Below are positions 16,398-58,343 of a DNA stretch of 64,000 nt, in pieces; within the stretch, counting starts at the first letter, position 1; each line of letters opens with the position of its first letter. The notes beneath the pieces are model-generated. The model had not been told where the DNA came from and searched no databases. It saw only the letters and a list, made by a program, of their open reading frames with translations. The translations under genes were made by a program, and so were the position numbers. This DNA is from Minisyncoccota bacterium (GTDB lineage: Bacteria; Patescibacteriota; Minisyncoccia; Moranbacterales; UBA2206). The DNA is taken from NCBI GenBank assembly GCA_031291955.1, contig JARLIA010000001.1, positions 5,300 through 69,299 on the forward strand. The letters are read 5' to 3'.

Positions 16398-16768
16398 ATC
16401 CTAGGTATTTATCAAGGTGGATCGAACGATCGATCTTCGTTTTTGCGAAGGTAGGAAAGTCCGGACTCCATCCGCCATTCCGGCGGAAAACAGGTAGCGG
16501 GTAACGCCCGTCTGGAGCAATCCACGAGGTGCGAGCAGAGACGCCAAGATTAGAAATAATCTCGGCATCCTAAGCGATTAGGATGAGTTCTTATGGCAAC
16601 ATAAGAGGTGAAACGGCTAAATCCTTACTCGGGAGCAAGGTCGTGTTCTGTGTTTTTAGCTAAACACGGAAAGTGCCGCTCGAGGCCGCCAGCAATGACG
16701 GTCCCAGATAAATGATCGTTCTCGACAGAATCCGGCTTACAGATCCGCCTTGATAAATACCTATAACT
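16398..16768 (+). ncRNA. rnpB: RNase P RNA (bacterial type A)
   Basis: Universally conserved elements are present: GGAAAGUCCGGACUCC (P4 5' strand), GGGUAACGCC, AAGAGGUGAAACGG, and ACAGAAUCCGGCUUA (P4 3' strand). A long P1 helix pairs 5' AGGTATTTATCAAGGTGGATC (16403-16423) with 3' GATCCGCCTTGATAAATACCT (16742-16762). The region is about 370 nt and ORF-free. Confidence 0.85.
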
Positions 16769-41590: not shown

Positions 41591-42073
41591 ATGTTTAATT
41601 TTTTTTCTATGGTTAGCAAAATAAAAAAAATAAAACCTCTCTTTGACATTAGGAAGCAGAACAAGCGAAAAATGTTTATCGTGTTGGTTTCTTTTCTCGC
41701 TGCCTTTGCCGTGGCTCATCTTTATGCCCTTCATTTTACCCATTACGTCTACATCAAGGGCTATCACATCCATCACTTTTATTTCGGCACAGTCGCTTTG
41801 GCGCTGGGCGGAATTTTGGGCATTTTGAATGACAGCCACCACAAACGGCGCATTGAGTTTGCCAGCGCGCTGATCGGAATCGGAATGGGATTGTTTGCCG
41901 ACGAAATCGGTCTGCTTCTCAATTGTACCAGCCAGAACCATCTTTGCGCTTATGCTTTCCCAGATACCGGTGACATCATTATGACCATCGCCATCATAAT
42001 CATTTTTCTAATTGCTTTAGCCGATTCGGACATTGAGGCCCTGAAGAAGAAATATTTCAAAAATAAAAGTTAA
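41591..42073 (+). CDS. His-rich membrane protein, function unknown
   Basis: It has 4 TM helices and a His-rich motif (HFTHYVYIKGYHIHHFYFG). Confidence 0.4.
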   Translation: MFNFFSMVSKIKKIKPLFDIRKQNKRKMFIVLVSFLAAFAVAHLYALHFTHYVYIKGYHIHHFYFGTVALALGGILGILNDSHHKRRIEFASALIGIGMGLFADEIGLLLNCTSQNHLCAYAFPDTGDIIMTIAIIIIFLIALADSDIEALKKKYFKNKS

Positions 42074-43608
42074 TCCAGTTCACTTACGACCGGCTTTTCA
42101 CGTTTCGCCATTTTAAGGAGGATATTCAAATCTTCCTTTTTTAATTCCCGCAGAAAATAAAGAATGGAAAGGTAGAGTGCGAACAGGATGGCCGACCAGA
42201 GAATAAAGAAATAGCTGTTGCGGGAAAAAGCGAAAGCGGCGACCGTCATGACCAGCGCGGCCATGATCATCTTCCAAAAACTTTTTGATTTGAATATATA
42301 TCCAAACTCATGGTAAGTATAGACAAGCGTAAAGAGCATGATCGCGAGAGCCATAAGAGCTGTCCCGGAAGCAGCACCGATGAGCCCGTATATTTTAATG
42401 AGAAAATAGGTGACAATTGTGTTGAGGAAAAGTCCGATGAGGGCGGCGTACATCGGAATCTTGACTTTGCCGGCACCATTAAGAATGAAAGTCAGGACGT
42501 AAAAAACAGTCAAAAATCCTTCGGCAAAAACATAAATCGACATCACCGGCGCCGAAAGTGCGAAGCGCTTAGAAAAGAAAACCACCATGAGAGGGAAAGA
42601 GAAATAAGACATCAGGATGCAAACGGGAATCAAAAGCATCACCAAAAAACGCAGAGATTGACTAACAATCTTTTTCGTTTCGGTGTCCTGTCCGGCTGAG
42701 GTCGTTTTGGAAACAGCCGGCAAAAGGACGATTGTGAGGGCGTAGAAAAGATTGTAGGGGATGGTGCCGACGGTGTAAGCCGCGTTATATAGTCCAGTTT
42801 GGATATCCGAACGGAGAATGCCCTTGACCAGATAAAGGTCGATGGTGTTTAAGAATTGGTAAGCGATCAAAAAAATCGTGACCGGCCAAGCGAAGGCGGC
42901 CAGTTTTTTCCAGTCAAATGAAGATTGTGAATTTTCCTGCGTAGAGACGCGATTAATCGCGTCTCTACCCGGCGCGACCTGGAATTCTTTCTTAATTTTA
43001 AATTTATCAATGGCTAATCCTAATAAAAATAATACGAACGGCGCGGCGGCATAACCCAAAATCGCTCCCTGAACGGCCAGTCCGCGCGGCCGGAGAAGCA
43101 GGGTCAGGCCAATGATGAAAACCATCCGCAAGACGCCCCGACTGGTTTTGAGCCAAGCTTGGATTTTAAATTTATGAAGGCCGGTGTAATAGTAGAAATA
43201 AAAAGAGGCTGCCGCAAAAGCCGGGATCACCAAAGTTGAAAGTCGAAATAGATTTGTCAGACTCGGATCATGAAGGATGCGCGCGATGACCGGCGAAAGA
43301 AAATAGAACGCGATCGTCACTACTCCGATCAGAATAATTTGGATTTTGATCGTTTGTTTTTTGATGGCAGCCACCATTCCTTTGTCTGTTTCGAAAATCT
43401 CGCTTAAATATTTGGACATGGCTGTGGGCACGCTCTGTCCGATCAGCACCACTGTCATAGTGGTCAGTGTTACGATGATTCCGAAAACGCCATATTCAGC
43501 CGGCCCCAAGACCCGCCCCATCGTCACCTGGATAACATAAGACGAGAGATTGAAAATAATCTCCGAGATAGTAACGATCAGCGTTGATTTGGCGAGAAAA
43601 TTAGGCAT
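42070..43608 (-). CDS. oligosaccharide flippase (Wzx-like, MOP/polysaccharide biosynthesis protein family)
   Basis: The product is 512 aa with about 14 TM helices and the polysaccharide-biosynthesis-protein architecture. It contains an internal 28-bp perfect palindrome at 42941-42968. Confidence 0.75.
   Translation of the reverse strand: MPNFLAKSTLIVTISEIIFNLSSYVIQVTMGRVLGPAEYGVFGIIVTLTTMTVVLIGQSVPTAMSKYLSEIFETDKGMVAAIKKQTIKIQIILIGVVTIAFYFLSPVIARILHDPSLTNLFRLSTLVIPAFAAASFYFYYYTGLHKFKIQAWLKTSRGVLRMVFIIGLTLLLRPRGLAVQGAILGYAAAPFVLFLLGLAIDKFKIKKEFQVAPGRDAINRVSTQENSQSSFDWKKLAAFAWPVTIFLIAYQFLNTIDLYLVKGILRSDIQTGLYNAAYTVGTIPYNLFYALTIVLLPAVSKTTSAGQDTETKKIVSQSLRFLVMLLIPVCILMSYFSFPLMVVFFSKRFALSAPVMSIYVFAEGFLTVFYVLTFILNGAGKVKIPMYAALIGLFLNTIVTYFLIKIYGLIGAASGTALMALAIMLFTLVYTYHEFGYIFKSKSFWKMIMAALVMTVAAFAFSRNSYFFILWSAILFALYLSILYFLRELKKEDLNILLKMAKREKPVVSELD
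42941..42968. repeat. 28-bp perfect palindrome inside the flippase CDS (GTAGAGACGCGATTAATCGCGTCTCTAC)
   Basis: Verified base by base. It encodes …PGRDAINRVST… in a predicted cytoplasmic loop of the Wzx-like protein. Confidence 0.9.
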
Positions 43609-43611
43609 TAT

Positions 43612-44199
43612 CTATATTGATAAATTTTTTATTTCTTCAAAAATTTCTTCTTTTCCGCGGCTACCATCAATAACTTTCAAATTCCACTCGGAAATTTTGG
43701 CGTCATATAATTCTTTTTTCTTTGCCAGATATTCCAAACCCTGGTCCGGTTTTCTTTCACGAGACATGATGAGAGCAGGGGAGAGTTGGAGATAAATGGC
43801 CACATCAGGCGTGAGAATGCTGTCCGTAGTGGGAAAAAATTTTTGCCCACTACGCGATTCATCCAGATATTCGATATTCACCAGTGAATCATAAAAATAC
43901 CGATCGCTTAAAATATAATCATAACCGGATTTACGTAGTTGATTACGTAAACACCCAAAACGCCAAATGTCGATCCGCAAAAATATTTTCCGGAGCCAAA
44001 TCTGCAGCGGCGACGCTTTGGTCACGCTCTTGCTCTCGCCAGGGTTTTCGTTTTTACCTGACAATTTATTGGCCAGGGAGAAAGTTATCGCGTGGAAATA
44101 AAAAACTTTGGAACCATGCGATTCCAAATATTTTTGCAACAATTTTATCTGGGTTGATTTCCCGGATCCGTCCAGGCCGGAAATAGTAACAATCTTCAT
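43612..44199 (-). CDS. thymidylate kinase-family P-loop kinase (divergent)
   Basis: It has the Tmk-type P-loop (MKIVTISGLDGSGKSTQ), a DRY motif (ILSDRYFYDSLVN) and a lid-like segment (PDVAIYLQLSPALIMSRERKPDQG). It lacks the canonical REPGG motif. The start is taken at the internal ATG at 44199. Confidence 0.55.
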   Translation of the reverse strand: MKIVTISGLDGSGKSTQIKLLQKYLESHGSKVFYFHAITFSLANKLSGKNENPGESKSVTKASPLQIWLRKIFLRIDIWRFGCLRNQLRKSGYDYILSDRYFYDSLVNIEYLDESRSGQKFFPTTDSILTPDVAIYLQLSPALIMSRERKPDQGLEYLAKKKELYDAKISEWNLKVIDGSRGKEEIFEEIKNLSI

Positions 44200-44209
44200 A
44201 ACTTTAAAT

Positions 44210-45715
44210 CTAATACATAATGACTGCCACTGGTTGCATCTTGGCCACGACATGGGCGATGCCGTTGACTTCGACGCCTTCAATCACGCGGTTGATATCT
44301 TTGTAACGAGCGGAGTCTTGTTTAATAACGGTCGAGGATTGGGCATTGTAGAGTTTGACACCCTTAGCTGCCATCTTGGCGAATAATTCACTTTTATTCG
44401 CGATTGATTTTTCGTTCTTGTTCTGGCCTTTGCCGGTGCCGTGCGGGGCGGAAAAGAAACTTTCCTCGTTCCGGTCGGTGCCGACGCAAATGTAGGCATC
44501 AGTCGCCATAGAAGAGGGGATGAAGGCCGGTTCGCCGGTTTTTTTGTATACCGGATGCTTAGTCTTGGCTGGACCGAAAGCGCGGGAAGTGTTACTGCGG
44601 TGGACCCAGACATCTTGTCCAAAATGATTTTCTTTGGAAATCGAGATATGCGGCATGTCATAGACCAGATCCAGTTCTGGATCACGTCCGAACATATTTT
44701 TAATCGTCTCCGAAATGTTGTGGGTGATGACCGCCCGGTTAGCGGTGCCGAAGTTCGATGCGGCCGCCCGAGCTTGCATATAGAGCTTGCCGTCCGGTCC
44801 GTCGCCGTCATATTTCAAAAGCGATTCGTCTCCGGCCATATGATTTTTGATTTTTTCCTGCATTTTGCGGTAGGCCTCTTTTTTCCGGGTGCTGAAAGTC
44901 AACTTTCCCAAAGTCACCATCGCGGCCTGCGAAAAGTGTTCGCGTTTTTTGGCGGTGTGGGTATACATCGTATATTGCCCCAAAATTCCCGAGCCGGTGT
45001 GGATCATAAAAAGATACTGGCCTTTCTTGAGACCCATGATTTTAGCCGTCTCTGGATCAATGACGTCGCCGACTTTCATGAGATCCAAAAAGTGGTTGCC
45101 GGCCGCTCCCAGGACGCCGAGGCGAAATTTGGCAAAAAACAAGTAGAGTTTGGGAATGACGTCAAAAATATCCTGGCGCATTATCTCGCCTGTGAAAAAA
45201 TTTCCGCCGTTCTGGGTGTTTTCCAGTTCATTTTTGGTTTTGATTTTTAAATAATCAATGATAGCCGAAGTGCCTTTCCGGCAAACGTCCACCACGACAT
45301 TAAATGGCACCTTCGTACCCATAAATCTTTTGGTTGGCACGGACTCGACCAGTTCTTTGAATAATTTATCAACATTTTCTGGCGAAAAATTTTCCTCAGT
45401 CAGACTGGTTTTTATGAGGCGCATCCCACAGTTTGGATCGGAATCATTGACCTGGGGAAGGATATATTTTTCCGAAACAATCACCGTTCCGGAAGCATTC
45501 TTCCGGCCGGGCTTCGAACAGACATCTGGCATGGCGACCGTCTGGCGAAATAGAGTATTCTTGTTTGAAGCAACGTCTTCCGCTTTGGCAAAAGTTTCTT
45601 CGTCTGGCAAAAGATCCCGGCTCATGAAAAACCGGCTGGGAACAGACATCTTTTCCGTTTTGAAATCATATTGATGCGGAGTGATTTCCTTGAGATTTTT
45701 TTCTTTATAGCCCAT
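44210..45715 (-). CDS. rtcB: RtcB-family RNA 3'-phosphate/5'-OH ligase
   Basis: RtcB hallmarks are present: metal/GMP-site motifs (AMPDVCSKPG…; DPNCGMRL; HTGSGILG) and a C-terminal …SAPHGTGKG…KMQPVAVIMY resembling the conserved RtcB C-terminus. The 501-aa product is of archaeal/eukaryotic-type length. Confidence 0.75.
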   Translation of the reverse strand: MGYKEKNLKEITPHQYDFKTEKMSVPSRFFMSRDLLPDEETFAKAEDVASNKNTLFRQTVAMPDVCSKPGRKNASGTVIVSEKYILPQVNDSDPNCGMRLIKTSLTEENFSPENVDKLFKELVESVPTKRFMGTKVPFNVVVDVCRKGTSAIIDYLKIKTKNELENTQNGGNFFTGEIMRQDIFDVIPKLYLFFAKFRLGVLGAAGNHFLDLMKVGDVIDPETAKIMGLKKGQYLFMIHTGSGILGQYTMYTHTAKKREHFSQAAMVTLGKLTFSTRKKEAYRKMQEKIKNHMAGDESLLKYDGDGPDGKLYMQARAAASNFGTANRAVITHNISETIKNMFGRDPELDLVYDMPHISISKENHFGQDVWVHRSNTSRAFGPAKTKHPVYKKTGEPAFIPSSMATDAYICVGTDRNEESFFSAPHGTGKGQNKNEKSIANKSELFAKMAAKGVKLYNAQSSTVIKQDSARYKDINRVIEGVEVNGIAHVVAKMQPVAVIMY

Positions 45716-53751: not shown

Positions 53752-53871
53752 TAGTTACCCACCTATTCTAAATAGGTTGGCGCCGGATGGCAAGTTTAAT
53801 ACGAAAAAGTCCGAAAGCGGGGCGCAAATTTGAAAGGTGACATAATTCGGATTAAAATATATAATGTAACC

Positions 53872-55035
53872 ATGAAGAAAAACAAAAACATCGTCATTGG
53901 CATCAATGCAAGTTTCATCAGAAAGCCCAACAATGGCATCGGGCAAGTGACTGCCAATTTCCTAAAAACTTTGGCACGAATCACGAATCACGAATCACGA
54001 ATCATTTTGTATCTAGAAGAAGATCTGCCGCGTGATTTCAAGTTGCCGAAAAATTTTGAAAAAAGGATTTTTTTGCCGCCTTGGAAACGCGATGATTTGA
54101 TCCGCAAAATCTGGTGGGAAAAATATTCTCTGCCGAAAAAAATCAAAAAAGACAAGTGTGATGTTTTTCTCAGTCTCTACCAGTGCCCGACGATTTTAGA
54201 GGGTGACACAAAACACATAATGCTCGTTCATGATATTGTTCCTAAATTATTTCCCGAATATCTGGATAATTCGCGCAAGAAACATTATTGGCAGCTGACC
54301 GAATATGCGATCGCAAGGACCGACAAAGTTCTCACTGTTTCGCGCCACACGGAAAAAGATCTGATCAACTATCTGAATATTCCCGCCGGAAAAATCACAC
54401 CCAACTATATCGATGTTGACGAGATTTACAAAAAAAGCGTTTCTCAAAAAGAATCCGCCCGGGTACTGAAAAAATATAAACTGAAACCAGGCTACATCCT
54501 GGCCGGCGGGGGAATGGAGATTCGGAAAAACGTCGAAGGAGTTTTTCATGCCTACAAATTCATGCTGGAGAGAGGGCTGGCGGAAGATCTGCCGCCGCTG
54601 GTCGTCTTCGGAAAAATCCTGCCCAATCTTTCCCTGGCTTTCGACGCGGAAAATTTCTTGAAAGTCCTGAATATGACTAAGAAAGTGAGGCTTCTGGATA
54701 TGGTGCCGCAAAAAGATATGCCGGCTCTTTACAAAAACTCGTCCTTTTTCGTCTACCCATCGTATTATGAAGGATTTGGCATGCCGCCGCTCGAAGCTAT
54801 GAACCAAGGGAAGTCCGTCATTGTTTCTAAAAACTCATCTCTCCCCGAAGTGGGCGGCGACGGCGTCCTCTATTGCCAAGCCGACGACATTTATGATATC
54901 GCTATGGTCATGAAAAACGTCCTCTCCAACCCGCAACTCCGCGAAGATTTGTCTCGCCGGGCCAAACTCCAGGCTGAAAAATTCTCGTGGGAAAGGTTTG
55001 TGAAGAAAGTTCTGAATATAGTCAATGAGATCTGA
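53872..55035 (+). CDS. glycosyltransferase family 4
   Basis: The GT4 pattern is present (MKKNKNIVIGINA…; YEGFGMPPLEAMNQGKSVIVSKNSSLPEVGG). A (CACGAAT)4 heptamer repeat sits near the 5' end. TATAAT lies just upstream of the ATG at 53872. Confidence 0.8.
   Translation: MKKNKNIVIGINASFIRKPNNGIGQVTANFLKTLARITNHESRIILYLEEDLPRDFKLPKNFEKRIFLPPWKRDDLIRKIWWEKYSLPKKIKKDKCDVFLSLYQCPTILEGDTKHIMLVHDIVPKLFPEYLDNSRKKHYWQLTEYAIARTDKVLTVSRHTEKDLINYLNIPAGKITPNYIDVDEIYKKSVSQKESARVLKKYKLKPGYILAGGGMEIRKNVEGVFHAYKFMLERGLAEDLPPLVVFGKILPNLSLAFDAENFLKVLNMTKKVRLLDMVPQKDMPALYKNSSFFVYPSYYEGFGMPPLEAMNQGKSVIVSKNSSLPEVGGDGVLYCQADDIYDIAMVMKNVLSNPQLREDLSRRAKLQAEKFSWERFVKKVLNIVNEI
53975..54004 (+). repeat. perfect heptanucleotide tandem repeat (CACGAAT)x4 inside the GT4 CDS
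   Basis: Counted directly as cacgaat cacgaat cacgaat cacgaat ca. It encodes ARITNHESRII. The unit length is not a multiple of 3. Confidence 0.85.
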
Positions 55036-55552
55036 AAATAGAAAATCAAATCGTTTGGTGGGATATGATTATTCGCAAGAGGGAATGTACTTCGTCACTT
55101 TTTGCACGAAGGAAAGGATTGAATGGTTTGGTGAAGTAAAAAATGGCGAAATGCTCTTAAACAAATATGGCGAGATCACTGAACAACAATTAAGCTGGCT
55201 GGCGAAACAATATAAATACATCAATATTGATTGCAAAATTGTAATGCCAAATCACGTACATACCATTTTGGAAATTCTCCCAGACGTTGAAATCGTAGGG
55301 ACAGGTCGCGACCTGTCCCTACGATTTCAACAATCGAAAATAAAACCGCTGCCCGAATTAATCGGCGCCCTGAAAACCACATCATCAAAATTGATTCACA
55401 GAAATGGATTTAATGATTTCGCCTGGCAAAGATCCTATTGGGATCGCATTATCCGCGACGAAGCAGAACTGAACCGTATCCGCGAATATATTTTCAATAA
55501 CCCGCAAAATTGGGAGCAAGATCGAAACAACTCGGAAAATATTTTTATGTAA
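55025..55552 (+). CDS. Y1 HuH transposase-family protein (IS200/RAYT-like, probably single-copy or domesticated)
   Basis: It has the RAYT-type N-terminus (GYDYSQEGMYFVTFCTKERIEWFG), the HuH motif (VMPNHVHTILEI), and a Tyr motif (FAWQRSYWDRIIRDEAELNRIREYIFNNPQNW). It overlaps the upstream GT4 stop by 11 nt. Confidence 0.7.
   Translation: MRSENRKSNRLVGYDYSQEGMYFVTFCTKERIEWFGEVKNGEMLLNKYGEITEQQLSWLAKQYKYINIDCKIVMPNHVHTILEILPDVEIVGTGRDLSLRFQQSKIKPLPELIGALKTTSSKLIHRNGFNDFAWQRSYWDRIIRDEAELNRIREYIFNNPQNWEQDRNNSENIFM
55286..55331. repeat. 46-bp perfect palindrome inside the HuH-transposase-like CDS
   Basis: The sequence is GTTGAAATCGTAGGGACAGGTCG|CGACCTGTCCCTACGATTTCAAC, and I checked both halves base by base. 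It lies between the HuH and Tyr motifs and encodes …VEIVGTGRDLSLRFQQ…. Confidence 0.9.
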
Positions 55553-55580
55553 TTTTAAAATAAAAAAAGACCCCGACACT

Positions 55581-57158
55581 ATGTTAAATGTCAATCATTT
55601 AAATAGACCAAAAACTTATTTGCTGATCGCCAATGTCCTTTTGGTTTTCTTTTTGATATTGCTCGGAAATTTTAAGGTCGTTCCTTTGGACACAGGCGAT
55701 TTTGTTTTTTTCGCTCTTTTGGTTTTTATGCTGGCCATCTACCGGTCAGGCTGGGCGTTTTTGATTTTTGTCGGACTCATTCCCTTGGAAAATATCAACC
55801 TCGCACCGGCCGAGCTGGAAATGACAATCCGGCCGTACCAATTTCTGGGCACCTTTATCATCGCAGCGCTTTTGGTGAGATTTTTCACCAAAAGATTAAA
55901 TTTTATCCCGGCCAAATTGAAATTGCCGGACTATTTGGTGATTGTTATGACGCTCGCCGGATTTCTGAGTGTGGTCACCGCGCCGAACAAATTAGCCTCC
56001 CTAAAACTGGCCGTAATATTTGCCAGCTTCGCTTTTTTATATTTCCTGGTCCGGAATTTTATCCAAAACACCGACGATCTCAAAAAAATAATCCCATTCT
56101 TTTTGAGTTCGTCAGCCGTCGTTATTTTTTACGGCATCTGGCAGAACTGGGCATACCTCCATGGCCGCAATTTTTTCGAAGCCATGCCCGGCCGCCCGAA
56201 CGGAACTTTCACTGAAGCGGATTGGCTGGGAATGTTCATCGTATTAGTTATTTCTGCTACGTATTGCATAATTCAATATTTATCGCAAAATATTTTTTCT
56301 AATAAAGCTAGTCAAATTTTCAATTTTCAATTTTCAATTTCTAAATTTTTAAATTATCTTCTGCTCGTTATTTCATTCATTCTCCTCATCCTCACCGTGT
56401 CGCGCAGTGCCTGGCTGGCGGCGCTTTTCGCGACATTGATGTTTTTGTTTATTTTTTTAACCGATCTGCGCTTTCGGAATTGGCAATGGAGAAACACGGC
56501 ATTTTCCGGCTTGAAAATACTGGCGTCACTAGTCATCGCTCTCGGCGCAATTTATATTTTTCATCTGACCAACTTCCAACTAGGAAGTCGCGCGACGAGC
56601 GCCGGCACCGGACTCCAGCAGATTACCATCGCTTGCGAAAAAAATGTCAATTTACCGGAAAAAATAAACGATAATTCCGAACTGGAAAAATATGATTGCC
56701 AACAGATCAATTTGCAAGACATCGCGGCCGATAAAGTCCAGGGGAAATATGTCACTACGATTTATCGCAACGACCCGAACATCGCCACCCGCAGCGTCAT
56801 TTATCAAAAGTCTTGGCAACAGATAAAAAATAATCCCATCTTGGGAATTGGGTGGGGGAATATCAGCCAAATTTTGGGCACGGACGCCCGCGGCGTACCC
56901 TTAAATTCGTCTAATATTTTTTTGGAAACCTGGCTCGGCGCCGGCCTTGCAGGATTTCTGGCGTTGGTGATTCTTTTGGGCTATATTTTATTCACTGCTG
57001 TCAAAAATTATTTTTATACTCAAGATGATTTACAAAAAACGACGAGTCTTTTCATAATAATCAGCTGGTTCGGATTGATTATTGCCAACCTTTTTAACGC
57101 CGGAATATTCCTAGGGATATTTTGGGTCTGGCTGGCCATTGCGCAGGTAAGTAATTAA
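55581..57158 (+). CDS. O-antigen ligase/polymerase family membrane protein (Wzy_C domain)
   Basis: It has about 12 TM helices and a Wzy_C-type periplasmic loop (NPILGIGWGNISQILG…NIFLETWLGAGLAGFLALV). Confidence 0.7.
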   Translation: MLNVNHLNRPKTYLLIANVLLVFFLILLGNFKVVPLDTGDFVFFALLVFMLAIYRSGWAFLIFVGLIPLENINLAPAELEMTIRPYQFLGTFIIAALLVRFFTKRLNFIPAKLKLPDYLVIVMTLAGFLSVVTAPNKLASLKLAVIFASFAFLYFLVRNFIQNTDDLKKIIPFFLSSSAVVIFYGIWQNWAYLHGRNFFEAMPGRPNGTFTEADWLGMFIVLVISATYCIIQYLSQNIFSNKASQIFNFQFSISKFLNYLLLVISFILLILTVSRSAWLAALFATLMFLFIFLTDLRFRNWQWRNTAFSGLKILASLVIALGAIYIFHLTNFQLGSRATSAGTGLQQITIACEKNVNLPEKINDNSELEKYDCQQINLQDIAADKVQGKYVTTIYRNDPNIATRSVIYQKSWQQIKNNPILGIGWGNISQILGTDARGVPLNSSNIFLETWLGAGLAGFLALVILLGYILFTAVKNYFYTQDDLQKTTSLFIIISWFGLIIANLFNAGIFLGIFWVWLAIAQVSN

Positions 57159-57174
57159 TTACGTAATTAATTAC
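57151..57174. repeat. tandem self-complementary 12-mer (GTAATTAATTAC)x2 overlapping the ligase stop codon
   Basis: Read directly as gtaattaattac gtaattaattac. It lies in the 39-nt gap before the next GT4 gene. Confidence 0.7.
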
Positions 57175-57197: not shown

Positions 57198-58343
57198 ATG
57201 ATTATCGGCATCGACATTAGAAATATCGGAAAAAAACGGACCGGCGACGAAGCGGTGTTTTTCAACCTGGTCAAAAACCTGGCCGCCATTGACGATAAAA
57301 ATGAATATCATCTATTCACCGACATCGCCAACACTCCAATATTACATAATATTGGAGTGGAGTTGGGCCTGACCGAAAAAGATAATTTCAAAATCATCAC
57401 GCTCCCAACCGCCAACAAATTCAGTTGGAATTTCTGGACTCTGCCGAAATATTTAAGAAAGAATCCAGTCGATATTTATCTGACCCAATACATCACGCCG
57501 TGGTTCGTGCCGAAAAAAATAAAAATAGTGACCATAATTCACGACGTTTCTTTCAAGGTTTACAAGCAATTCATCAAAAAGTCGGATCTTTTTTTCCTGA
57601 ATTGCCTGATTCCGCGCTCAATCAAACGCGCGGACAAAGTTGTCGGGGTTTCGAAATTTACAAGAAATGAAATCATCAAATATTATAAAACCGATCCGGC
57701 CAAAGTGGATTTTATTTACAATGCCGTTGCGGATGATTTTTCGGCTGAAGATACGTCGGAAGAAAAAATAAAATCTGTCAAAGAAAAATATCATCTCCCG
57801 GAAAAATACATCCTCTACATCGGCACGCTCCAGCCGCGAAAAAACATCTCGACTCTCGTCGAAGCCTTCGCGCTTTTGAAAATGGGCGGGAAATTCGATT
57901 CTTTGAAGTTGGTGATTGCGGGCGGCAAGGGTCACAATTATGACAAAAAAATCGACACGGCCGTTGCAAATAATAAATTGGAGCAGGACGTAATTTTCCC
58001 GGGTTTTGTCGCTGAAGAAGACAAGGCGGCGTTGATGGCGGCAGCGGATATTTTCTGTTTCCCGTCGTTCTATGAAGGATTCGGCATTCCGATCCTGGAA
58101 GCTATGAGCGTCGGCACGCCGGTTGCGGCGTCCGACATCGCCCCGCACCGGGAAATCGCCGACGAAGCGGCTCTCTTTTTCAATCCGGACGTGGCCGGTG
58201 AAATAACTCAAAAACTGACAGAGATCTTAAAAAACAACACTCTTCACAACAACCTCACAATAAAAGGCCACGCCCAAGTCCCAAAATTCTCCTGGCGGCA
58301 AACCGCCGAAAAAATGTTGAATATTTTTGAAAGTTTAAAATAG
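57198..58343 (+). CDS. glycosyltransferase family 4
   Basis: The GT4 pattern is present (MIIGIDIRNIG…; YEGFGIPILEAMSVGTPVAASDIAPHREI). Confidence 0.85.
   Translation: MIIGIDIRNIGKKRTGDEAVFFNLVKNLAAIDDKNEYHLFTDIANTPILHNIGVELGLTEKDNFKIITLPTANKFSWNFWTLPKYLRKNPVDIYLTQYITPWFVPKKIKIVTIIHDVSFKVYKQFIKKSDLFFLNCLIPRSIKRADKVVGVSKFTRNEIIKYYKTDPAKVDFIYNAVADDFSAEDTSEEKIKSVKEKYHLPEKYILYIGTLQPRKNISTLVEAFALLKMGGKFDSLKLVIAGGKGHNYDKKIDTAVANNKLEQDVIFPGFVAEEDKAALMAAADIFCFPSFYEGFGIPILEAMSVGTPVAASDIAPHREIADEAALFFNPDVAGEITQKLTEILKNNTLHNNLTIKGHAQVPKFSWRQTAEKMLNIFESLK

Follow-up and report, generated by a model that had tools for sequence, protein, structure and literature searches.

A RAYT-type HuH enzyme gene of a Patescibacteria genome with an in-frame, extended copy of its probable cognate REP palindrome

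The stretch of DNA analysed here (64,000 nucleotides, referred to below as the window) belongs to contig JARLIA010000001.1 of a Minisyncoccota bacterium (Patescibacteria; assembly GCA_031291955.1, positions 5,300 to 69,299 of the forward strand). Among its genes of surface glycan synthesis it contains a single copy of a small gene encoding a HuH enzyme of the Y1 family, and within the coding sequence of this gene lies a perfect palindrome of 46 bp. The gene is closely packed between its neighbours. The upstream gene of a GT4 glycosyltransferase (53830..55035) overlaps it by 11 nt, as the initial annotation of this DNA had stated, and the gene of a Wzy_C/O-antigen-ligase-like protein starts at position 55581, i.e., 28 nt (and not 29 nt, as given in the same annotation) downstream of its stop codon. 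No inverted repeats or subterminal hairpins were detected around the open reading frame (ORF) in the region 54500-56100, except for the internal palindrome itself and an AT-rich segment at its stop codon.

The protein matches the Pfam family Y1_Tnp with an E-value of 2e-7. The best NCBIfam model is that of the enzymes associated with repetitive extragenic palindromic sequences (REPs), known as RAYT or TnpA_REP (NF047646, REP_Tyr_transpos; 67.7 bits, E 1e-18, curated cut-off 80), and the score with the IS200 model NF033573 is 21.3 bits at a cut-off of 55. The only sequence match in PDB that was obtained with a profile of 45 homologues is 4ER8, the TnpA_REP of Escherichia coli, with which both the W-Q...R cluster and the catalytic tyrosine motif align. 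The AlphaFold2 (AF2) model of the protein has a pLDDT (predicted local distance difference test) of 89.8 and is matched by Foldseek to the TnpA proteins of ISDra2 and IS608 as well as to 4ER8, with E about 4e-7. The two catalytic signatures that had been recognised in the initial annotation hold upon proper alignment: H77, H79, and Y155 are invariant across the 45 homologues, and so is W134 of the WQRSYWD motif. The residues W94, Q95, W99, E100, H101, and R104 of the E. coli enzyme, given as contacts of the GTAG guide in the legend to Fig. S11 of Quentin et al., 2018 (PMC6006769), correspond in the alignment to W134, Q135, W139, D140, R141, and R144, with two conservative substitutions; the latter six residues are thus predicted, from the alignment, to be the counterparts of the guide contacts and would contact the guide in a similar manner. 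The protein ends 20 residues past Y155, that is, without a C-terminal extension domain. Its sequence is the same as that of a hypothetical protein from a metagenome-assembled genome of Candidatus Pacebacteria.

Considering that the fold matches the TnpA proteins of IS608 and ISDra2 as well as 4ER8, and that the Pfam family is Y1_Tnp, one might suppose an active transposase of the IS200/IS605 type which landed in the glycan operon. This we regard as very improbable. The score with the IS200 model is far below the cut-off, neither subterminal hairpins nor inverted repeats flank the gene, tnpB is lacking, the gene is present in the window in one copy, and both here and in the orthologues it is tightly packed in arrays of genes of the same strand. 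The Pfam and NCBIfam scores, the match to 4ER8, the AF2 fold, and the lack of flanking inverted repeats and hairpins therefore identify the protein as a RAYT-type, apparently domesticated HuH/Y1 enzyme and not as an IS200/IS605 transposase, in agreement with the initial annotation, which had also seen no obvious IS ends beside the gene.

The palindrome is located in frame between the HuH and the tyrosine motifs, covers the codons of V88-Q102 and the first base of the Q103 codon, and occurs once in the window. Its core is a 28-nt double-foot element, in which a GTAG foot is followed by a 10-bp stem opening with three G-C pairs and by the mirror-image foot CTAC (GTAG-GGG...CCC-CTAC); the flanks GTTGAAATC and GATTTCAAC lengthen this core to 46 bp, which is unusually long. 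In the AF2 model residues 85-108 form an unstructured loop that connects the HuH strand to helix αC, and the pLDDT of residues 91-100 is about 52. No other hairpin of the 64 kb is as long, and ten shuffles of the sequence gave maximal arms of 9-14 nt, so that the claim of the initial annotation that such a palindrome is far beyond chance is fully justified. The fold of its single-stranded DNA (ssDNA) has an energy of -25.2 kcal/mol (z = -8.2). The coordinates of the features discussed are collected in Table 1.

Table 1. Features of the RAYT gene, its internal palindrome, and related elements of the window
Feature	Position	Strand	Basis or remark
RAYT/TnpA_REP-type HuH Y1 gene	55025..55552	+	175 aa; Pfam Y1_Tnp, NCBIfam, match to 4ER8, AF2 fold
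HuH motif codons H77-V78-H79 (in NHVH)	55253..55261	+	both His invariant in 45 aligned homologues
Palindrome, 46 bp, perfect	55286..55331		28-nt REP core plus 9-nt extension on each side; 23-nt arms, no spacer
Double-foot REP core, 28 nt, GTAG-GGACAGGTCGCGACCTGTCC-CTAC	55295..55322		encodes VGTGRDLSL
W134-Q135-x3-W139-D140-R141-x2-R144 cluster	55424..55456	+	alignment to 4ER8
Catalytic Tyr codon Y155 (within REYIFNNP)	55487..55489	+	invariant; aligns with YIYINP of 4ER8
Double-foot palindrome, 28 nt, perfect, GTAGAGACGCGATTAATCGCGTCTCTAC	42941..42968		in frame, Wzx/MOP-flippase gene 42070..43608 (-)
Double-foot palindrome, 28 nt, 13/14 pairs, GTAGTGGGAAAAAATTTTTGCCCACTAC	43826..43853		candidate insertion, dTMP-kinase-like ORF 43612..44283 (-)

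An assembly artefact at this locus can be ruled out, because a second, independent assembly (GCA_031291895.1) contains an identical 1.9-kb stretch spanning the palindrome, which, besides, lies inside a long contig and in frame. Elsewhere, palindromes of this family do give fold-back contigs: three contigs or contig ends (L039, L044, and L045) are perfect fold-backs centred on the same element, the symmetry extending for 26, 57, and 1798 nt, respectively, up to the contig edge, and most likely they are palindrome-induced artefacts of the assembler.

The nature of the core element becomes clear from its distribution in other genomes. The 28-mer was searched for, as GTAGGGNNNGGTCGCGACCNNNCCCTAC, in GTDB representative genomes, one per species, in 8-kb stretches; at least 118 stretches contained it, with 123 sites listed. 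Together with its compensatory variants it occurs, among the matches listed, in about 20 phylum-level groups, which include Bacteroidota, Patescibacteria, Calditrichia, Nitrospinota, Omnitrophota, and Elusimicrobia and, further, Planctomycetales, Gemmatimonadales, Smithellaceae, Leptospiraceae, Gammaproteobacteria, and Orenia. The variable triplet is perfectly complementary in 113 of the 123 sites, where it exists in 13 variants. Only 12 sites are inside a RAYT-like ORF and four adjoin one, 107 being located elsewhere; about two thirds of all sites are in short ORFs, i.e., are extragenic. There are also in-frame copies within unrelated genes, encoding a Ser/Thr kinase domain, an nSTAND1 NTPase, a Pyr_redox_2 enzyme, a Kdo transferase, and a protein of the IF-2B family. 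Copies from the same genome have a common variant in 29 of 30 pairs (expected fraction 0.245), and the orthologous RAYT genes are often flanked by the same REP. Being dispersed, mostly extragenic, complementary in its variants, and represented by one variant per genome, the 28-mer behaves like a REP family. Of the possibilities raised in the initial annotation, that of a self-recognised substrate belonging to a dispersed REP-like element has thus received support, from the dispersed copies, from the single variant per genome, and from the REPs flanking the orthologues.

Several other observations concern this family. Six viral contigs of IMG/VR (L199-L204), the only viral contigs carrying the REP, have the same 28-nt element in its ACA or AAC variants, and no RAYT-like ORF was found on these six. 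Beside full REPs, both within RAYT genes and outside genes, there are tandem arrays of half-REPs, e.g., of repeated GTAGGGAACGGTCGCG (L009:5489, L041:4453, L047:2391, L070:290, L073:70, L088:7457); at the protein level such arrays are seen in P0005, P0059, P0062, and P0120, for instance as VGTGRDAAS repeated three times. They suggest slippage or cleavage and rejoining at the hairpin. Another short motif, ccggaatgacgaa / ttcgtcattccgg, is located beside the REP in several genomes of Nitrospinota and of uncultured organisms (L017, L042, L053, L095, L105, and L106) and may represent a further repeat family tied to REP sites. Finally, the metagenome loci L131, L156, L176, L135, and L152 contain 28-nt double-foot palindromes with the common arm start GTAGGGAAC and with other centres (GCATATATGC, AGGCATGCCT, and AAAAATTTTT). 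That the length of 28 nt is fixed despite the differing stems suggests a constraint on the spacing between the two feet.

In the set of 120 homologues, 105 proteins were evaluable, and 82 of these contain the peptide G.GR[DG]..[LP] between the HuH motif and helix αC, the rest being duplicated, split, or decayed. At the DNA level, 70 of 80 orthologous metagenomic loci (about 88%), whose proteins are 45-65% identical, have within the gene a 28-nt palindrome in which 12 or more of the 14 pairs are formed. Alignment of 64 copies of the core helix revealed double-sided compensatory changes at 12 of the 14 pairs, with 83 double changes and only two G-U cells, and the encoded amino acids covary in the way the palindrome demands (T-LS, N-RS, N-HS, A-LP, S-LT). 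The 13 orthologues having the peptide VGTGRDLSL share identical codons at residues 1-8, and the ninth codon differs in one of them; conserved codons of the catalytic core (helix αC and the W motif), in contrast, exhibit about 1.5 bits of synonymous entropy. Since the changes are compensatory and synonymous variation is essentially nil, the constraint acts on the nucleotides, not on the amino acids.

These data bear upon two further explanations. According to the first one, the symmetry is a codon-level coincidence in a conserved peptide (or, again, an error of assembly). Indeed, few parts of the protein alignment are as conserved as VG.GRD..L, and fold-back contigs do exist in the family. The initial annotation had asked whether orthologues keep the peptide without palindromic DNA; what they keep are palindromes with compensatory changes. 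The shuffles, the covariation, and the codon identity at eight of nine residues, next to conserved residues which vary synonymously, rule out chance and codon coincidence; the same DNA occurs in non-coding positions, and the locus recurs in the second assembly, so that the probability left to this explanation as a whole is negligible.

The second explanation places the function of the hairpin at the level of RNA or expression, as an mRNA stem throttling the synthesis of a potentially toxic nuclease, as an RNase or autoregulatory site, or as a structure affecting the downstream ligase gene. The stem would be very stable as RNA, too; a promoter/terminator scan, otherwise uninformative, revealed no terminator between the RAYT and the ligase gene, and the two are therefore probably co-transcribed; moreover, the hairpin is kept even at loci with no other copy nearby. 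However, the pairs are strictly of the Watson-Crick type, the near absence of G-U being what is expected of a DNA palindrome and not of an RNA stem. Besides, the identical element is mostly extragenic and is also located in unrelated genes on either strand, the genes downstream vary among the orthologues, and a search of the whole window produced no Rfam match to the palindrome. We consider an RNA-level role improbable, and the regulation of ligase translation, proposed in the initial annotation, is not borne out, as the pairing points to DNA. Nor is a specific tie to the surface-glycan genes, suggested in the same place, upheld: in other Patescibacteria the orthologous RAYT genes are located in unrelated housekeeping gene arrays of the same strand and retain the hairpin, and the position in the glycan operon is therefore incidental.

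Based on the foregoing, we conclude, with a probability of roughly 0.85, that the gene is a RAYT/TnpA_REP gene whose features are those of subclass 2.4 in the classification of Quentin et al., 2018 (PMC6006769), and that the palindrome, in frame inside this gene, is one copy of the REP cognate to the enzyme. By analogy with E. coli TnpA_REP and with IS608/ISDra2, the following course of events can be proposed. In the ssDNA state, e.g., on the lagging-strand template, the palindrome would be extruded as a hairpin; a dimer of the RAYT protein would bind the stem, the cluster of W134, Q135, W139, D140, R141, and R144 reading the 5' GTAG foot; then Y155 and the metal bound by the HuH motif would cut and rejoin the adjacent ssDNA, whereby copies of the REP could spread or be rearranged. 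The least certain part of this scheme concerns the intragenic copy: it would reside in the only loop able to accommodate about 10-15 added residues, and its presence inside the gene might tie the enzyme to its substrate and thus ensure their joint inheritance and transfer.

Several points weigh against these conclusions. The NCBIfam score remains below the curated cut-off of the RAYT model. The gene appears to have every feature of subclass 2.4 that was tested, this being an assignment by features and not by the hidden Markov models or the tree of the authors of the classification. As for REP activity in this particular genome, it is indicated by just two other double-foot palindromes, the stems of which are different; no further copy of the same REP variant was found in the 64-kb window or in the 20-kb flanks of two orthologues from the candidate phyla radiation (CPR, i.e., Patescibacteria). 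The sequences counted for covariation had been preselected at 12 or more of 14 pairs, and the figure of 97% paired is partly due to this construction, unlike the covariation itself. The bias of the reading frame does not differ clearly between the copies within RAYT genes (50:2) and those in unrelated genes (12:3; Fisher p = 0.07); a single ancestral insertion is not proven by it, because independent insertions in other genes are similarly biased. Template switching from arm to arm could alone keep the palindrome perfect without any function, but it would not preserve its exact sequence.

The last point leads to the question of whether the intragenic copy is of any use. It might be a neutral passenger: REPs land everywhere and survive in a tolerant loop, and the perfection of the palindrome would be maintained by template switching or re-insertion, with no role in the relations between the RAYT and the REP. 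The authors of the 2018 classification judged intragenic insertions to be peripheral and probably without effect on activity (PMC6006769). The segment forms a disordered loop, and the same REP is found in frame within many unrelated proteins; the half-REP tandem duplications mark the site as mutable. About 10 of the 80 orthologues have decayed copies, and one orthologue (L184) lacks the segment entirely, therefore the segment is dispensable for the fold; the nearest relatives of L184, only about 58-60% identical to it, are too distant to set the exact boundaries of the insertion from this case. On the other hand, a passenger would hardly be expected in about 88% of orthologues so divergent in protein sequence, nor with almost no synonymous variation; its exact sequence is conserved across phyla, and at the three CPR loci examined no second copy of the variant of the internal REP, and hence no donor copy, is present within 20-64 kb. 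We therefore hold pure neutrality to be plausible but less likely.

The linkage of the enzyme to its substrate is favoured by us over pure neutrality, since self-correction explains the symmetry of the element and not its sequence identity across phyla, this preference being the least certain of our conclusions. In its strongest form, which we put forward only tentatively, the intragenic REP would be a cis element of a compact RAYT-REP unit, selected at the nucleotide level, and the gene would bear the master, or seed, copy of the substrate of its own product. This would explain the conservation of the exact 28-mer in about 20 phylum-level groups, while the proteins diverge by about 50%, the absence of synonymous drift, the near-universality of the element in the clade, and its being the sole local copy in small CPR genomes. 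If this is true, the unit, once transferred horizontally, could give rise to a REP family anew, or the enzyme could sense or regulate its own gene.

As to the additional nine nucleotides on each side of the core, this extension is locus-specific. Its columns are not conserved in the orthologues, where pairing over the ten flanking column pairs amounts to 38.6%, the same as in the background. Of 120 dispersed copies, 14 have palindromy of at least 4 nt past the feet, and of 47 intragenic copies six have it, at an expected frequency of 0.4%; thus, about 12% of copies elsewhere are similarly extended, the sequences of the extensions differing from locus to locus and the arms reaching up to 24 nt. 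In comparison with its closest homologues, the protein of the window has about three additional residues on either side of the REP nonapeptide, as judged by direct reading of the sequences and not by a formal test. Correction of quasipalindromes by hairpin-templated template switching is established in E. coli genetics. Most likely, the extension arose by this process; alternatively, the REP may have inserted into an inverted repeat already present at the site, as in the cases of Di Nocera et al., 2013 (PMC3733652).

Apart from the element in the RAYT gene, two more GTAG...CTAC palindromes are present in the window, both of 28 nt, and palindromes of this type with a different length were not found (Table 1). 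GTAGAGACGCGATTAATCGCGTCTCTAC encodes the peptide GRDAINRVST in the central loop of the flippase; 14 of 15 homologues have gaps opposite this peptide, which identifies the palindrome as an intragenic REP insertion, and a nearly identical element with compensatory changes is located 73 nt downstream of an orthologous RAYT gene (L180:6592). GTAGTGGGAAAAAATTTTTGCCCACTAC has the AAAAATTTTT-centred design that is also found in the metagenome locus L176 and in the subclass 2.4 REP of Caldilinea. Thus, this gene-dense genome carries several double-foot elements, all of them inside protein loops (of the RAYT, the flippase, and possibly the kinase-like gene). Two other hairpins are without a GTAG foot, namely a perfect 24-bp AT-rich palindrome, GTAATTAATTACGTAATTAATTAC (57151-57174), spanning the Wzy_C stop codon and the intergenic region downstream of it, and a hairpin with 13-bp arms, CACTCCAATATTACATAATATTGGAGTG (57332-57359), in the next glycosyltransferase gene. 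The sole Rfam match in the window is the RNase P RNA of bacterial class A (16414-16755, + strand, 140 bits).

In general, the results provide a known explanation for a striking perfect palindrome in a coding sequence, namely a RAYT gene with its cognate REP in frame. They allow annotators to recognise the recurrent peptide VG.GRD..L, as well as occasional fold-back contigs, as REP-derived, and they add to the known hosts of double-foot REPs and of RAYTs of the subclass 2.4 type the Patescibacteria, in whose tiny, gene-dense genomes the elements end up in protein loops. The identity of the 28-mer across phyla, the compensatory covariation, the near-zero synonymous variation, and the recurrent extension of the flanks go somewhat beyond the published description, and with such comparative data the question of whether an intragenic copy is functional or merely tolerated becomes testable. 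A literature search found no paper containing either the exact 28-mer or the peptide VGTGRDLSL, and a search for RAYT together with Patescibacteria returned irrelevant papers only.

Comparison with known systems places the gene as follows. With the TnpA proteins of IS200/IS605 (IS608, ISDra2) it shares the fold and, by analogy, would share the chemistry on hairpin-bearing ssDNA. The latter, however, belong to mobile insertion sequences with subterminal hairpins at the left and right ends, often with tnpB, and present in many copies, and none of this was found at the gene of the window. E. coli TnpA_REP (YafM; 4ER8) has, in the alignment, the same W-Q...W-[ED]-[HR]..R cluster and tyrosine motif and is likewise a single-copy domesticated gene. 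It differs in belonging to subclass 2.2, in its REPs, which are imperfect, bulged, single-foot, gene-flanking, and number in the hundreds, in having no REP within its coding sequence, and in a protein identity of only about 19%. Intragenic REPs and REPs embedded in larger palindromes were described by Di Nocera et al., 2013 (PMC3733652), and these, like the Rickettsia palindromic elements, are in-frame palindromic repeats in loops of unrelated proteins. The insertion in the flippase, those in the kinase, nSTAND1, and other genes, and the extensions of the flanks all match this pattern. In those cases the hosts are genes in general, whereas here the host gene is the presumed mobiliser of the element.

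The closest counterpart is TnpA_REP subclass 2.4 of Quentin, Siguier, Chandler and Fichant, 2018 (PMC6006769), equivalent to RAYT group 4 of Bertels et al., 2017 (PMC5581495). Its members lack a conserved C-terminal extension domain and have, between β3 and αC, an insertion of highly variable length with short DNA repeats. Their REPs are long, with a stem opening with three G-C pairs, and include double-foot forms (5' GT[AG]G and 3' C[TC]AC). REPs are also found within the tnpA_REP genes, between HuH and Y and with the frame intact, which was called 'a unique feature' of this subclass. The gene of the window has the same HuH/Y1 core without the extension, the β3-αC insertion, the in-frame REP between HuH and Y, the 5' GTAG foot, the three G-C pairs at the base of the stem, and a double-foot REP of 28 nt, a length which is also that of the Caldilinea REP GTAGGGGCGAAAAATTTTTCGCCCCTAC, listed under subclass 2.4 in Table S1 of PMC6006769. 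The patchy spread over many phyla and the low REP copy numbers agree as well, group 4 being distributed over 17 classes, with flanking 16-mers of low abundance (PMC5581495). The differences from the published description are the host, Patescibacteria being absent from the text of PMC6006769; the GGTCGCGACC-centred 28-mer, not found in its Table S1; the lack of flanking REPs at the gene of the window, which has the internal one only; and the extension of the palindrome to 46 bp. Thus, the arrangement itself, an in-frame REP inside a subclass 2.4 gene, was already published in 2018 (PMC6006769), and the gene described here is a clean further example of it, coming from Patescibacteria.

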